Assembly: GCA_964490075.1 (NCBI GenBank)
Contig: CAZBBK010000056.1
Location: forward strand, 1-39,426
Reading direction: 5' to 3'
Source: an uncultured Gemmatimonadota bacterium
GTDB taxonomy: Bacteria > GCA-2686955
DNA: 39,426 bases
Shown: positions 2,522 to 9,339 of the stretch, piece by piece
How positions within the stretch are numbered: the stretch's first letter is position 1
How the letters are laid out: each line of letters begins with the position of its first letter
Notes under the pieces: generated by a model
Seen by the model: the letters and a program-made list of their open reading frames with translations, nothing else
The model's database searches: none
Told to the model about the DNA's origin: nothing
Position numbers and translations under genes: made by a program

Positions 2522-5152
2522 ATGACTCCCCTCACCTTCCAGCTCAACGACCGAGAGGTCCGCCTCGAGCCCCGCCCGGGGGAGTCGTTGATGCACGCCT
2601 TGCGCGAACGCTGCGGGATTCGGTCGATCAAGAACGGCTGCGACGGACAGGGGCGCTGCGGGAGCTGTCTGGTTCTGATCGACGGCCGCCCCCGCACCAC
2701 CTGCGCGACGCCGATCGAAAAGGTCGCCCGTCGCTCTGTGCGCACCCTCGAGGGCTATCCATCCGAGGATCGCGCCCTGGTCGCCCGCGCCTTCGTGGCG
2801 GCGGGCGCCGTGCAGTGTGGTTTCTGCACGCCGGCCCTGGCGCTGCGGGCGCTCTCGCTGGTCGAGCGCCGCGCCGAGCTCGGCCGCGCGGAGGTGGCGC
2901 GAGCCATCGACGGCCATCTCTGCCGCTGCACCGGCTACGCCAAGATCGTCGACGCCATCCTGCTGCTGGACCGGGCGCGGCGCGGCGAGGATCTGCCCCG
3001 GCTCGAGAGCGAGGGCCGGGTCGGAAGCCCGCTGGCTCGCTACCGCGGAGAGGCCGGCGTGCTGGGCGAGTCCCCCTTCGTGGGCGACCTCGAGCGACCG
3101 GGTCTGCTGCACGGCGCGCTGCTGCTCGCACCGCACGCCCGCGCGCTGCTCAAGCGCCTCGACCCACGGCCGGCGGAAGCGCTGCCGGGGGTGGTGGCCG
3201 TCGCCACCGCAGTGGACGTGCCCGGGGAACGCTGGCTCGGCCTGTTGGAGCAGGATTGGCCGGCCTTCGTCGCTTGCGGCGAGGAGGCGCGCTGCGTGGG
3301 CGACGTGGTCGCGGCGGTCGCCGCGGAGGACGAGGAGTGCGCGCGCCGGGCGGCGGCACTGATCGAGACCGAGTGGGATCCGCTGCCGCCCACCACCGAT
3401 CCCGAGGAGGCGCTGCGGCCCGATCATCGGCGAGTCAACCCCCGTCACGCAAACCTGCTGCAGCGGATCGTCATCCGCCGCGGCGACGCCGAGGGCGCCC
3501 TGGAATGCGCCCCCCACGTGATCTCCGACACCTGGCGGACCCAGCGCATCGAGCATCTCTTTCTCGAGCCGGAGAGCGCGCTGGCGGAGCCGCGCCCGGG
3601 CGGCGGGCTGAGGCTCTGCTCGCAAGGGCAGGGGATCTTCGACGACCGCCGCCAGGTGGCGCGCCTGCTGGGGCTGGCGGAGCAAGAGGTCGAGGTCGAC
3701 CTGGTGCCGACCGGCGGAGCCTTCGGCGGCAAAGAGGATCTCTCGGTCCAGGCCCACGCCGCACTGCTCGCCACCATGACCGCCCGCCCGGTGCGCGTCA
3801 CCCTTTCGCGCGAGCAATCGATCCGCCTGCACCCCAAGCGCCACCCCTTCCACATGCGGCTCCGCCTCGGCTGCGACGAACGAGGGCGGCTGAGCGCGCT
3901 CAGCGCCAGAATAGTCGCCGACTCCGGCGCCTACGCCTCGGTCGGCGCCAAGGTGATCGAGCGCGCCGCCGGTCATGCCTGTGGTGCATACAAGATTCCG
4001 AACGTCGACATCGAAGCACGCGCGGTCTACACCAACAACCCGCCCTCGGGAGCCATGCGCGGATTCGGCGTCGGCCAGGTGAACTTCGCCCTCGAAGGGT
4101 GTCTCGACCGACTGGCCGCCGAGCTCGATATCGACGGCTTCGAGATGCGCATGCGCAACGCGGTCGACGCCGGTGACCCCATCACCACCGGCCAGGTGCT
4201 CGAGAAGTCGGTGGGATTGAAACAGACTTTGAATGCGCTGCATCCGCACTACCGGCGGGCGCGCGCGGCCGGCAAGGCGGTGGGCATCGCCTGTGCGATC
4301 AAGAACTGCGGGATCGGCAACGGCGCGGTCGAGCGCGGCGCGGCCCGGCTCGAGGTGGAGCCCGACGGATCGGTCACGATCTACTCGGGCTTCAGCGAGA
4401 TGGGCCAGGGGCTGATGACGGTGCTGATCCAATGCGCCGTCGAGGCATGCGGCCTCCCAGCCGCGGTGTTTCGCCCCCGCGTGAGCACCCGCCACGTCCT
4501 CGATTGCGGCCTGACGACCGGCTCCCGAGCCACCCTGCTCGGCGGTCGCGCCGTGCAAGGGGCCGCCGTGAAGCTGCGCGCCGATCTCGACGCCGGGCGG
4601 ACCCTCGCGGACCTGCGCGGCCGCGTCTACGCCGCCGAGATCGTGATCGACGACACGGTATCCGCGCGCCACTGGCGGCCCGGAGACAAGACCCATACCG
4701 CCTACGGCTTCGCCACCCAGCTCTGCATCCTCGACGCCGCCGGGCGGGTCGAGAAGATCGTCGCCGCCCACGACGTGGGGCGTGCGGTCAACCCGCTGCT
4801 CTGCGAGGGTCAGATCGAGGGCGCCATCCACATGGGGCTGGGCGCCGCGCTCTCCGAAGAGCTTCCCCTGCAAGACGGCGTCCCTCTGACCTACAATCTG
4901 CGCCGGCTCGGCGTGATGCGAGCGCGCGACATGCCCGAGATCGAGGTGCTGCTGGTCGAGGAGCCCGAGCCCGAAGGCCCGTACGGAGCCAAGGGGATCG
5001 GAGAGATCGCGTTGGTGCCGACCGCCGCCGCGGTGGCCGGTGCATTGGCCGCGTTCGACGGCCGCTGGCGCACCTCGCTGCCGATGCGCGACAGCGCCGC
5101 CGCTCGGGCCTCGAGCGTCGGATACGACCCCACCGACGAGGAGTCCGCATGA
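2522..5152 (+). CDS. xdh: Xanthine dehydrogenase-family molybdenum hydroxylase, fused 2x[2Fe-2S] + Mo-binding domains (selenium-dependent XDH type)
   Basis: CDGQGRCGSC and QCGFC...LCRCTGY Fe-S motifs; GGAFGGKED, HPKRHP, GAMRGFG, TTGSR, GAKGIGE Mo-domain motifs; ~876 aa with no FAD domain, the architecture of the Se-dependent XDH family. Confidence 0.85.
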   Translation: MTPLTFQLNDREVRLEPRPGESLMHALRERCGIRSIKNGCDGQGRCGSCLVLIDGRPRTTCATPIEKVARRSVRTLEGYPSEDRALVARAFVAAGAVQCGFCTPALALRALSLVERRAELGRAEVARAIDGHLCRCTGYAKIVDAILLLDRARRGEDLPRLESEGRVGSPLARYRGEAGVLGESPFVGDLERPGLLHGALLLAPHARALLKRLDPRPAEALPGVVAVATAVDVPGERWLGLLEQDWPAFVACGEEARCVGDVVAAVAAEDEECARRAAALIETEWDPLPPTTDPEEALRPDHRRVNPRHANLLQRIVIRRGDAEGALECAPHVISDTWRTQRIEHLFLEPESALAEPRPGGGLRLCSQGQGIFDDRRQVARLLGLAEQEVEVDLVPTGGAFGGKEDLSVQAHAALLATMTARPVRVTLSREQSIRLHPKRHPFHMRLRLGCDERGRLSALSARIVADSGAYASVGAKVIERAAGHACGAYKIPNVDIEARAVYTNNPPSGAMRGFGVGQVNFALEGCLDRLAAELDIDGFEMRMRNAVDAGDPITTGQVLEKSVGLKQTLNALHPHYRRARAAGKAVGIACAIKNCGIGNGAVERGAARLEVEPDGSVTIYSGFSEMGQGLMTVLIQCAVEACGLPAAVFRPRVSTRHVLDCGLTTGSRATLLGGRAVQGAAVKLRADLDAGRTLADLRGRVYAAEIVIDDTVSARHWRPGDKTHTAYGFATQLCILDAAGRVEKIVAAHDVGRAVNPLLCEGQIEGAIHMGLGAALSEELPLQDGVPLTYNLRRLGVMRARDMPEIEVLLVEEPEPEGPYGAKGIGEIALVPTAAAVAGALAAFDGRWRTSLPMRDSAAARASSVGYDPTDEESA

Positions 5153-7879: not shown

Positions 7880-9339
7880 TGACTGTCACCACCATGGTGT
7901 GCGGCGGCTGCGGGGCCGAAGCTCCGCCGAACGACCCCTTCCGCTGCCCGCGGGCGCGCGGCGACGACGATGTCGACCACCTGCTCACGCGCCTTCTCGA
8001 CACCGAGGCGATCGAGTTCCCCGTCCACCGCGAAAGCGACAATCCCTTCCTGCGCTTCTCCGTCCTCACCCGTGCCTGGGACCTGGGTCGGGAACACGGG
8101 ATTCCCGCGACCGAGCTGGAACACCTGATCGAGGATCTGAGCGCAGCGGTGGCGCGGGTCGACGGCCGTCGTTTCGTCCACACCCCCTTGGTCGCGCTGC
8201 CGGAGCTGGAGCAGGCCTGGGATCTCGGCGGCACGCTGTGGGCCAAGGACGAAACCAACAACGTTTCGGGGTCGCACAAGGCGCGCCACCTGATGGGAGT
8301 GATGCTCTACCTGCGGGTCGCCGAGCGCCTCTCCCTGATCGATCCCCAGCGCCCGCTGGCGATCTCGAGCTGCGGCAACGCCGCCCTGGCGGCGGCGGTG
8401 ATCGCTCGCGCGGCGGCGCGGCCGATCGATGTCTACATTCCGGAGTGGGCCGACCCCGATGTGGTGCGGAGCCTCGAGACGCTCGACGCCCGGCTGCATC
8501 GCTGCCCCAGAGACCCGAACCTGCGCGGCGATCCTTGCACCCACGCCTTTCGACAGGCGGTGGCGCGGGGCGCCCTCCCCTTTTCCTGCCAGGGCACCGA
8601 CAACGGGCTGGCCCTCGAGGGCGGGCTGACGCTGGGCTACGAGCTGGTGGCGGAGCTGCACGCCGATCCGCCGGATCGGATCTTCATCCAGGTCGGCGGA
8701 GGCGCGCTGGCCAGCGCCTGTATCCAGGCCTGGCGCGAGGCCAAGGAGTGGGGTCTGGTGACGCGAATCCCGCGCTTTCACGCCGTCCAGACCGAGAACA
8801 CCGCGCCGCTCCAACGCGCCTATCGGAAGATGGTGACGCGCATCATGGCCGAGCTTCCCCACGCGTCCGCCAACGGCGGCGACGTTTTCGCCGACCTCGA
8901 ATCGACCGCCCGGCGCGCCGATCTGCTGCGCCGCGAGACCCAATCACGCGCCGTGGCGAGCGCGCTGCGCCACGCCGCCACGCACCGCTCGCACTATATG
9001 TGGGCCTGGGAGAGCCCGCCCCAGAGCATCGCCCATGGAATCCTCGACGACGAGACCTACGACTGGCTGGCGGTGGTGCGCGGCATGATCGCCTCGGGCG
9101 GCTACCCGCTCACGGTCTCCGAAGAGCTGCTCGAGGAGGCGCGCGACACCTTGCGGAAGACATCCAAGATCCGCGCCGACGCCACCGGCAGCGCGGGACT
9201 GGCGGGGCTGGCGCTGCTCCAGCGCTCGGGGCTGACCGCCCCGGGCGAGCGCTGGTTGGTCCTCGCGACCGGCATCGACCGCCAAGACGAGAAACACCCG
9301 ATGAATGGGGGGAGGGCAACGCACCCGGGGGAACGGTAG
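7879..9339 (+). CDS. Threonine synthase-like PLP-dependent enzyme with N-terminal Cys motif
   Basis: CGGCG...FRCP N-terminus, TPL, KDETNNVSGSHKAR (PLP Lys), SSCGNAA, QVGGGAL, SIAHGI, LATG. TGATG overlap with the upstream stop. Confidence 0.8.
   Translation: MTVTTMVCGGCGAEAPPNDPFRCPRARGDDDVDHLLTRLLDTEAIEFPVHRESDNPFLRFSVLTRAWDLGREHGIPATELEHLIEDLSAAVARVDGRRFVHTPLVALPELEQAWDLGGTLWAKDETNNVSGSHKARHLMGVMLYLRVAERLSLIDPQRPLAISSCGNAALAAAVIARAAARPIDVYIPEWADPDVVRSLETLDARLHRCPRDPNLRGDPCTHAFRQAVARGALPFSCQGTDNGLALEGGLTLGYELVAELHADPPDRIFIQVGGGALASACIQAWREAKEWGLVTRIPRFHAVQTENTAPLQRAYRKMVTRIMAELPHASANGGDVFADLESTARRADLLRRETQSRAVASALRHAATHRSHYMWAWESPPQSIAHGILDDETYDWLAVVRGMIASGGYPLTVSEELLEEARDTLRKTSKIRADATGSAGLAGLALLQRSGLTAPGERWLVLATGIDRQDEKHPMNGGRATHPGER

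Follow-up and report, generated by a model that had tools for sequence, protein, structure and literature searches.

How does the reductive breakdown of purines end in a bacterium that has no YgeX, the ammonia-lyase that closes this pathway in Escherichia coli? The question is raised by an operon at positions 2522–9339 of a 39,426-nucleotide contig (CAZBBK010000056.1 of assembly GCA_964490075.1, analysed at its full length and called the window below) from an uncultured Gemmatimonadota bacterium. The window is contig C56 of genome G000, which comprises 5.7 Mb in 136 contigs and is 95.3% complete. The operon encodes a xanthine dehydrogenase-type hydroxylase (XDH), an SsnA-like amidohydrolase and two pyridoxal 5′-phosphate (PLP) enzymes, called PLP1 and PLP2. 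Our preferred reading, to which we assign a probability of roughly 0.6, is that the operon provides three stages of a dispersed reductive urate (2,8-dioxopurine) pathway and that the PLP pair closes this pathway in the slot of YgeX. It is built on gene content, family scores, gene linkage and the absence of YgeX, all of which were directly observed. The genes of the operon and the gene that follows it are:

2522..5152, plus strand: XDH, a fused 2Fe-2S/molybdopterin hydroxylase of 876 aa (TIGR03311 and Pfam)
5149..6378, plus strand: SsnA-like amidohydrolase of 409 aa (SsnA models best, below cut-off)
6380..7879, plus strand: PLP1, a 499-aa PLP enzyme of the CysK/cystathionine β-synthase (CBS) fold (weak PALP and cysK matches, fold)
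7879..9339, plus strand: PLP2, a 486-aa ThrC-like PLP enzyme with an N-terminal Cys-rich ribbon (PALP, 124 bits; fold)
9345..12089, plus strand: hybrid histidine kinase with TPR, HisKA, HATPase_c and two receiver domains (Pfam domains)

The four operon genes are coupled as described in the original prediction, the coordinates of which were all borne out. The stop codon of XDH overlaps the ATG of the SsnA-like gene (5149) in an ATGA at 5149–5152, one nucleotide separates the TGA of the latter (6376–6378) from the ATG of PLP1 (6380), and the TGA of PLP1 (7877–7879) together with the ATG of PLP2 (7879) forms a TGATG at 7877–7881, with a GTG at 7876 in the same frame as this ATG. The same four genes, together with a fifth one, were recovered independently by a gene caller based on GC position.

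Judged from their family matches and predicted models, PLP1 and PLP2 are fold-type II PLP enzymes (PF00291). PLP1 scored 35.1 bits against PF00291, just at the cut-off of 35, and 61.9 and 61.5 bits against the cysteine synthase models cysKM TIGR01136 (cut-off 344.15) and TIGR01139 (cut-off 350.95). PLP2 scored 124.3 bits against PF00291, and 84.1 and 30.9 bits against the threonine synthase models NF006050 (cut-off 303) and TIGR00260 (cut-off 167.1). Neither protein showed significant similarity to E. coli YgeX (best BLASTP E-values of 0.001 and 0.28 for PLP1 and PLP2, respectively) or to its partner (E = 0.028), and the diaminopropionate ammonia-lyase (DPAL) models TIGR01747 and TIGR03528 were absent among their NCBIfam matches, so the claim that neither resembles YgeX held. 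Database names for their relatives are confined to “cysteine synthase”, “threonine synthase” and “PLP-dependent enzyme”, and a search of the ESM Atlas with the PLP proteins returned unnamed PALP clusters only.

The predicted models (pLDDT, the predicted local distance difference test score, 90.5 for PLP1 and 91.6 for PLP2) placed PLP1 nearest to cysteine synthase, β-cyanoalanine synthase and CBS (Foldseek E of about 1e-12 to 1e-10, TM-score to target 0.7–0.8), the approximately 40% of its length left uncovered by these matches consisting of conserved N-terminal (~90 aa) and C-terminal (~100 aa) extensions. Among 41 PLP1 sequences from several phyla, which are 64–81% identical to the query with a mean column identity of 75%, K112, S140-T141-G142-N143 and N215-Q216-F217 are invariant and align to the active site of CysK; the motif GSAGT is likewise invariant. 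The best folds for PLP2 were short ThrC enzymes, followed by serine racemase, TdcB and aspartate racemase. Its family is less uniform (48–69% identity, 60% column identity), with invariant C8, C11, C23, H34 and S132-H133-K134 and a motif GGGA. Both proteins retain the PLP lysine and the Asn/Gly loops; on the basis of alignment, we take K112 and K134 to be the Schiff-base lysines and the Gly loop to bind the phosphate of the cofactor.

The genome of the window lacks a canonical ygeX, as neither TIGR03528 nor TIGR01747 gave a match at E ≤ 1e-3 and tblastn with E. coli YgeX found none in this 95.3%-complete assembly. Relatives of the PLP pair occur in more than 600 species-level genomes of Acidobacteriota, Chloroflexota, Actinomycetota, Myxococcota, Pseudomonadota and other phyla. 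The scan, which took one genome per species, yielded more than 600 PLP1 loci, and the 80 best-scoring ones were studied, a non-random set in which many loci are ended by contig edges. In 65 of these 80 loci, spread over many phyla, PLP2 is the next gene 3′ of PLP1 and has the same orientation; the carriers of the pair include a culturable species, Rhodoplanes azumiensis (KCTC 15603, L006). Six of the 15 loci without an adjacent PLP2 end less than 600 nt from PLP1. In 28 of the 80 loci, an orthologue of the operon XDH (44% identity or more along a stretch exceeding 400 aa) is accompanied by an SsnA-like gene, no XDH-bearing locus being without one, and 26 of these 28 contain PLP2 as well. The two PLP genes thus form a conserved pair linked to xdh/ssnA across phyla, a linkage on which the original prediction had been made dependent.

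Gene clustering combined with Pfam analysis of representatives showed which genes recur around the pair: YgeW-like carbamoyltransferases (often two), carbamate kinase, M20 and HyuA-like amidohydrolases, and furthermore YgfK-like Fe-S flavoproteins or luciferase-like (F420-type) reductases, RpiR regulators and adenosine deaminase. DPAL (TIGR01747, E ≤ 1e-20) was absent from all 13 other genomes in which the pair stands beside XDH/SsnA, the completeness of which was not reported, and hence from 14 of 14 including that of the window. A homologue of E. coli YgeX was encountered in only three of the 80 loci (L063, L071, and L080), and in none of them does PLP2 adjoin PLP1 (L071 ends 362 nt past PLP1). 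All five genomes examined from the phylum of the window have a PLP1 match, that of G006 being only 44% identical, and the presence profile within the phylum was uninformative. It is worth recording that six clusters of Chloroflexia-type or unclassified origin (L003, L008, L009, L065, L066, and L070) carry two short carbamoyltransferases (317 and 325 aa) and carbamate kinase, with no M20 or HyuA gene within 9 kb, while the genome of the window represents the other type with one long YgeW-like enzyme and an M20 hydrolase.

The context is not uniform, and in Acidimicrobiia-type genomes the pair is found among housekeeping genes of the rph, rdgB, murI, clpP, and rpsB type. These loci, and the apparent lack of a threonine synthase in the genome of the window, speak for the view that the PLP proteins are general amino-acid enzymes that merely lie beside xdh/ssnA, and that PLP2 might be the threonine synthase of this lineage. 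No ThrC exceeding the cut-off of TIGR00260 was found in the genome of the window or in its three relatives of the same family (G007–G009, 83–84% complete), and the E. coli ThrB and ThrC queries had no match in the genome of the window; a genome of a sister family has ThrC. Several findings make this view very improbable. The 30.9-bit score of PLP2 is far below the ThrC cut-off, and when PLP2 was aligned by HMMER with ThrC of Thermus and Aquifex, the Arg of their motif NPxRxEGQKT, which presumably binds the substrate phosphate, proved to be replaced by Ala or Leu in the PLP2 family, where the segment reads DNGLAIEGG. All 13 PLP-pair genomes of other phyla that were analysed encode a canonical ThrC besides PLP2, which, together with the 31-bit score of PLP2, indicates that the PLP2 family as a whole is not ThrC. 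Four CysK/M-like genes (284–329 bits) are present besides PLP1 in the genome of the window. The proposal that the PLP proteins are not ordinary ThrC or CysK enzymes stood up. A role outside purine breakdown is also opposed by the linkage to XDH/SsnA, seen in 28 of the 80 loci and across many phyla, and by the linkage to ureido-cleaving enzymes elsewhere. Even in the Acidimicrobiia-type genomes, an SsnA-like gene that scores in the same class is encoded elsewhere in five of five cases, in three of five flanked by the same XDH type (45–46% identity) and a luciferase-like reductase. As regards threonine, this marine lineage may be auxotrophic or may use another route.

The first two genes of the operon point to the pathway. 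XDH matched the Se_dep_XDH model TIGR03311 with 872.6 bits (cut-off 830.45) over model positions 3–845 of 848, which confirmed its assignment to the Se-dependent type, and its single 876-aa chain comprises the Pfam domains Fer2, Fer2_2, Ald_Xan_dh_C (a/b hammerhead), MoCoBD_1, and MoCoBD_2. By family and conserved context, it is likely to be the enzyme interconverting urate and 2,8-dioxopurine (2,8-dioxopurine dehydrogenase, DOPDH, type). The identification of the second protein as SsnA-like was upheld in part: the SsnA models were its best matches (NF005540, 255.3 bits; TIGR03314, 251.3 bits; next family, 76 bits), but both scores are below the respective cut-offs of 444 and 455.5. E. coli SsnA found the operon protein as its best match in the genome (34% identity over 427 aa, 179 bits, the next match having 81 bits), the reverse direction of this mutual match being given by the NCBIfam ranking only. 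With the HTH metal motif VNAHTHIYS seen in its translation, the protein is likely a ring-opening hydrolase.

The reductive route outlined for E. coli and Clostridium sporogenes begins with the conversion of urate to 2,8-dioxopurine by XdhD-YgfM (E. coli) or by a fused XdhAC DOPDH (C. sporogenes), continues with reduction by YgfK, ring opening by SsnA and the action of HyuA, YgeW with the carbamate kinase YqeA, and YgeY, and ends with YgeX, which converts 2,3-diaminopropionate to pyruvate and ammonia (PMC12507026; bioRxiv 10.1101/2025.04.24.650524). YgfK and candidate counterparts of the other steps between XDH and YgeX that the operon does not provide were found in the genome, all of them unlinked to the window; the pathway genes are spread over at least six contigs:

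Contig C3: YgfK (TIGR03315, 866.1 bits, cut-off 835.3; 37% identical to E. coli YgfK over 1079 aa)
Contig C33: YgeW-like carbamoyltransferase (372 bits, cut-off 453; 46% identical to E. coli YgeW)
Contig C33, adjoining the YgeW-like gene: YgeY-like M20 hydrolase (183 bits, cut-off 321)
Contig C9: dihydropyrimidinase/D-hydantoinase (573.7 bits, cut-off 393; 34% identical to HyuA)
Contig C118: carbamate kinase (336 bits, cut-off 266)

YqeB is also present (C21, 234 bits, over the cut-off), and YqeC was not found in the 95.3%-complete genome. The original prediction had placed the module in the xdh/ssnA purine-urate system, now recognizable as the reductive 2,8-dioxopurine pathway, and this assignment was supported. 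Its further suggestion of an alternative lower pathway has to be narrowed: the slot of YgeX is filled differently, but YgfK, the YgeW- and YgeY-like enzymes, the hydantoinase-type enzyme and carbamate kinase are present on other contigs.

In the scheme that we consider, XDH (2522–5152) would interconvert urate and 2,8-dioxopurine, YgfK (C3) would reduce the latter, and the SsnA-like enzyme (5149–6378) would open the reduced ring. The hydantoinase-type enzyme (C9), the YgeW-like enzyme with carbamate kinase (C33 and C118) and the YgeY-like M20 hydrolase (C33) might then strip the ring and ureido groups, giving a C3 amino acid, first albizziin and then 2,3-diaminopropionate. Finally, PLP1 and PLP2 (6380–9339) would turn this C3 amino acid into pyruvate and ammonia, in the slot of YgeX in E. 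coli.

The division of labour between the two PLP enzymes can be approached through loci in which PLP1 occurs without PLP2. In Aminobacter ciceronei (L080), GntR, a DPAL-like gene (433 aa) and PLP1 follow one another in this order, and PLP2 is missing. In an Ectothiorhodospiraceae metagenome-assembled genome (L071:1082-8997) and in L097:4052-11914, Pfam analysis revealed an operon with overlapping junctions that consists of RpiR, the tripartite ATP-independent periplasmic (TRAP) transporter genes DctQ/DctM/DctP, a DPAL-like gene, M20, CN_hydrolase, and PLP1. The order and the sizes of the genes are identical in L098 and L100 (compared by layout, without a Pfam scan), and in L096:7689-15090 CN_hydrolase adjoins PLP1, while TRAP genes and a DPAL match lie alongside. 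Apart from the Ectothiorhodospiraceae genome, the carriers of this conserved operon are Alphaproteobacteria. A sample of 251 genomes of the alphaproteobacterial order of Rhodoplanes contained PLP1 in 22, PLP2 in one (the centre genome itself) and DPAL in 56 (E ≤ 1e-60; 41 of the 56 over the cut-off). DPAL was present in 10 of the 22 PLP1 genomes versus 46 of the 229 others, a comparison given without a P-value as kindred genomes are not independent, and in five of these 10 it lies on the same strand within 2.5 kb of PLP1. No SsnA-like match in these five DPAL-linked genomes exceeds 130 bits, and none thus reaches the level of the purine-cluster genomes; PLP1 cannot there depend on purine ring opening. 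The TRAP/DPAL/M20/CN_hydrolase/PLP1 operon looks like a system for uptake and degradation of a free ureido/diamino C3 acid, perhaps albizziin or diureidopropionate, and by this gene context PLP1 would belong to the handling of an open-chain ureido/diamino C3 acid after ring opening.

The occurrence of PLP1 with DPAL and without PLP2 speaks against a strictly obligate PLP1/PLP2 heteromer for one reaction. Since PLP2 and DpaL replace each other beside a constant PLP1, PLP2 is more likely than its partner to do the work of the YgeX lyase, and PLP1 appears to carry out a distinct step. This could be a separate β-elimination or β-replacement on an L-configured β-N-substituted alanine; alternatively, PLP1 might take the other enantiomer or convert albizziin or diaminopropionate into the substrate of the second enzyme. 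We tentatively consider, although with more doubt than belief, that PLP1 represents a new activity, namely that of a widespread and extremely conserved β-lyase or β-replacement enzyme for β-N-substituted alanines (albizziin, 2,3-diaminopropionate), whose fixed partner would be a true DpaL or else PLP2, itself derived from ThrC.

Two more specific divisions of labour were weighed against the sequences and folds. PLP1 could exchange the β-amino or β-ureido group of diaminopropionate or albizziin for water and so form serine, and PLP2 (or, where it is absent, the DPAL-type enzyme) would then act as a serine dehydratase, releasing pyruvate and ammonia. The CysK/CBS active-site motifs and fold of PLP1 are those of β-replacement chemistry, L-serine dehydratases are among the matches of the PLP2 profile (1pwe, E = 3e-8), TdcB and serine racemase/dehydratase among those of its fold, and the fixed, translationally coupled order of PLP1 and PLP2 suits successive steps. 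This route is nevertheless unlikely, as the additional step would bring no evident advantage compared with direct elimination and finds no residue-level support, and no CysK-family enzyme is known to use water on diaminopropionate.

The other possibility concerns stereochemistry: the C3 intermediate could be of D or mixed configuration, and the pair would jointly do the job of the two-base YgeX of E. coli, either with one of the enzymes as a racemase or with two lyases for opposite enantiomers. CysK-type enzymes act on L-amino acids, and the fold neighbours of PLP2 include PLP-dependent serine and aspartate racemases. YgeX of E. coli is described as equally active on L- and D-diaminopropionate, HyuA as D-specific, and UacY was modelled on D-aminoacylase (PMC12507026), while a pair of a racemase and a D-specific lyase is on record for cysteate (PMC11193023). 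Since PLP1 also pairs with DPAL-type enzymes, which need no helper in E. coli, and the sequences give no stereochemical information with the methods used, we regard such a split as rather improbable.

The substrate itself could also be a different one, that is, another N-heterocycle, or the ring could be opened in another order, for example with the short SsnA-like enzyme freeing the α-amine first and a PLP enzyme acting on a cyclic or ureido intermediate. The sub-cut-off scores of the SsnA-like protein would agree with this, and so would the loci in which long and short SsnA-type genes occur together (L003, L027, and L035) and the full clusters with two carbamoyltransferases that lack HyuA or YgeY within 9 kb (L065, L066, and L070). 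However, the genome has a YgfK over the equivalog cut-off, XDH belongs to the type named for selenium-dependent purine enzymes, and the association of PLP1 with DPAL and decarbamoylases in genomes lacking an SsnA-like gene fits an open-chain C3 substrate; we give this alternative very little credence.

Returning to the reductive urate pathway with the PLP pair in the slot of YgeX, a number of observations weigh against it. Within the genome, the best match of E. coli XdhD is a three-subunit XdhA-like enzyme on C21 instead of the operon XDH, and consequently the urate-reducing Mo enzyme is assigned from linkage only. The SsnA-, YgeW-, and YgeY-like proteins are all below the curated cut-offs, and the enzyme on C9 might simply be a dihydropyrimidinase that serves pyrimidine catabolism. 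The known pathway needs only one PLP step, which leaves no evident slot for PLP1 if PLP2 alone corresponds to YgeX. PLP1 also occurs alone with CoA-transferase A/B and luciferase-like genes (L024–L026, L072, L101:4323-8623, and L104:2425-11804), in L104 preceded by the F420 biosynthesis genes CofE, CofD, CofC, and FbiC-like, a context that does not fit purine breakdown, and 12 of the 22 PLP1 genomes of the Rhodoplanes order have neither PLP2 nor DPAL at the thresholds used. The expected mutual exclusion with ygeX holds for the 14 genomes with the XDH/SsnA-linked pair, but genome G014 contains both the PLP pair, not beside XDH/SsnA, and DPAL. Finally, no name, paper or assay was found for any member of the PLP1 or PLP2 families. 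The literature search returned no paper on the pair, the supplements of both 2025 pathway papers, the gene-cluster tables of which could bear on the claim, lying outside this search; the text of PMC12507026 contains neither “threonine synthase” nor “cysteine synthase”, and a preprint on Prevotella copri had none of the five terms looked for in it.

A search for natural PLP1-PLP2 fusions gave 12 long matches, none of which was convincing when inspected by eye. In P0245, P0246, P0249, P0251, and P0252, PLP1 is followed by PLP2, and the Arg/Pro/Ala-rich sequence in between resembles the product of a frameshifted read-through from one neighbouring gene into the next; P0247 and P0248 consist of a ThrC-like and a 45–48%-identical PLP1-like domain with odd linkers; and in P0244 an SsnA-like part is joined to PLP1 by a low-complexity stretch of approximately 110 aa. 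A residue comparison of the Mo enzymes was likewise abandoned: Glu606 of E. coli XdhD, said to orient urate (PMC12507026), lies in an XdhD-specific insertion that cannot be aligned with the operon XDH family, and no inference was drawn from it.

The cluster on C21 (L110:3415-12272) comprises YqeB, a hybrid kinase, FAD and 2Fe-2S subunits, the XdhA-like Mo subunit (669 bits, cut-off 780), which is the best match in the genome for both XdhD and XdhA of E. coli, and a TRZ/ATZ-type amidohydrolase. It plausibly represents the purine-to-urate part, with a conventional xanthine-to-urate enzyme. A SelD match on C65 (G000:C65:32509-33429, minus strand, 317.9 bits) contains one in-frame TGA, which is what a SelD with selenocysteine would show. 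SelD and YqeB, both present, and YqeC, which was not found, are the markers of the selenium-cofactor trait.

The hybrid kinase that follows PLP2 starts at 9345 or 9348, that is, 6–9 nt past the PLP2 stop codon, and is probably co-transcribed with the operon. A sequence scan of the region 2000–12600 detected no promoter-like site, and four terminator-like sites versus 3.3 expected. Among sequencing runs, four DNA runs from one marine-metagenome study, one of which may be the source, and no RNA run turned up. The position of this kinase 3′ of PLP2 is lineage-specific, as a 55%-identical kinase gene after PLP2 was found in only one of the 80 loci (L001). Hybrid histidine kinases adjoin three of the scattered loci in this genome: besides the one after PLP2, a second follows YgfK on C3 (L106:10056-13348), accompanied by a periplasmic-binding-protein-like gene, and a third lies between yqeB and the XdhA-like genes on C21 (L110:4411-7008). 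Such kinases may be a means of co-regulating the dispersed genes. Upstream of the operon and divergent from it, an RlmD-like 23S rRNA methyltransferase gene (1211–2473, minus strand; 180 bits, cut-off 183.55) and a gene for a class-I S-adenosylmethionine (SAM)-dependent methyltransferase (299–1201, minus strand) are located, neither of which seems connected with the operon.

It was not until 2025 that the reductive urate pathway was elucidated, with E. coli and clostridia, and it is now being exploited for urate-lowering probiotics. If the PLP pair closes this pathway, the YgeX version is one variant only, and two large families now mis-named “cysteine synthase” and “threonine synthase” would gain a function. 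If, in addition, PLP1 has the new activity considered above, most environmental bacteria would complete the reductive breakdown of purines with a two-enzyme PLP module that is unlike the single-enzyme YgeX in chemistry or stereochemistry, and the same module would also serve the separate TRAP-transporter operon for free ureido/diamino C3 acids. The published network analysis scored “YgeX” as any PF00291 protein (PMC12507026), which makes the PLP1/PLP2 pair indistinguishable in it; if the pair does close the pathway, surveys using this definition or, conversely, a strict DpaL one would mis-score anaerobic purine degraders.

Compared with the pathway of E. coli and C. sporogenes, the genome of the window shares the FeS/Mo hydroxylase, YgfK, an SsnA-type hydrolase, carbamate kinase, YqeB, and SelD and has candidates for the hydantoinase-type and YgeW-type enzymes and the YgeY-type M20 hydrolase, and the fused FeS and Mo layout of the operon XDH is that of C. 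sporogenes XdhAC (bioRxiv 10.1101/2025.04.24.650524). It differs from both in that YgeX is missing, two unrelated fold-type II PLP enzymes stand in the operon, and the genes are scattered instead of forming one cluster; in addition, no YgfM-type FAD subunit lies beside the operon XDH, YqeC was not found, and the SsnA-, YgeW-, and YgeY-like proteins are sub-cut-off. With YgeX/DpaL, the PLP pair has in common fold-type II, the expected products pyruvate and ammonia, and the place in the cluster, and a DPAL-type gene replaces PLP2 in some genomes; unlike YgeX/DpaL, it consists of two proteins, each approximately 90–100 aa longer, with no significant similarity or family match to that enzyme. PLP1 resembles CysK, CBS and β-cyanoalanine synthase in fold (Foldseek E = 1e-12, TM-score 0.76–0.81), PLP lysine, Asn loop and NQF motif, but it is only about 20–27% identical to them, has extra conserved termini and lies in a context of purine/ureido-acid catabolism instead of sulfur genes. 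The best match of PLP2, in sequence and in fold, is to the short ThrC enzymes (Aquifex 2ZSJ and Thermus 1UIM), from which it differs by its low identity (about 20%), the loss of the Arg of NPxRxEGQKT, and the addition of an N-terminal Cys-rich ribbon and approximately 100 aa.

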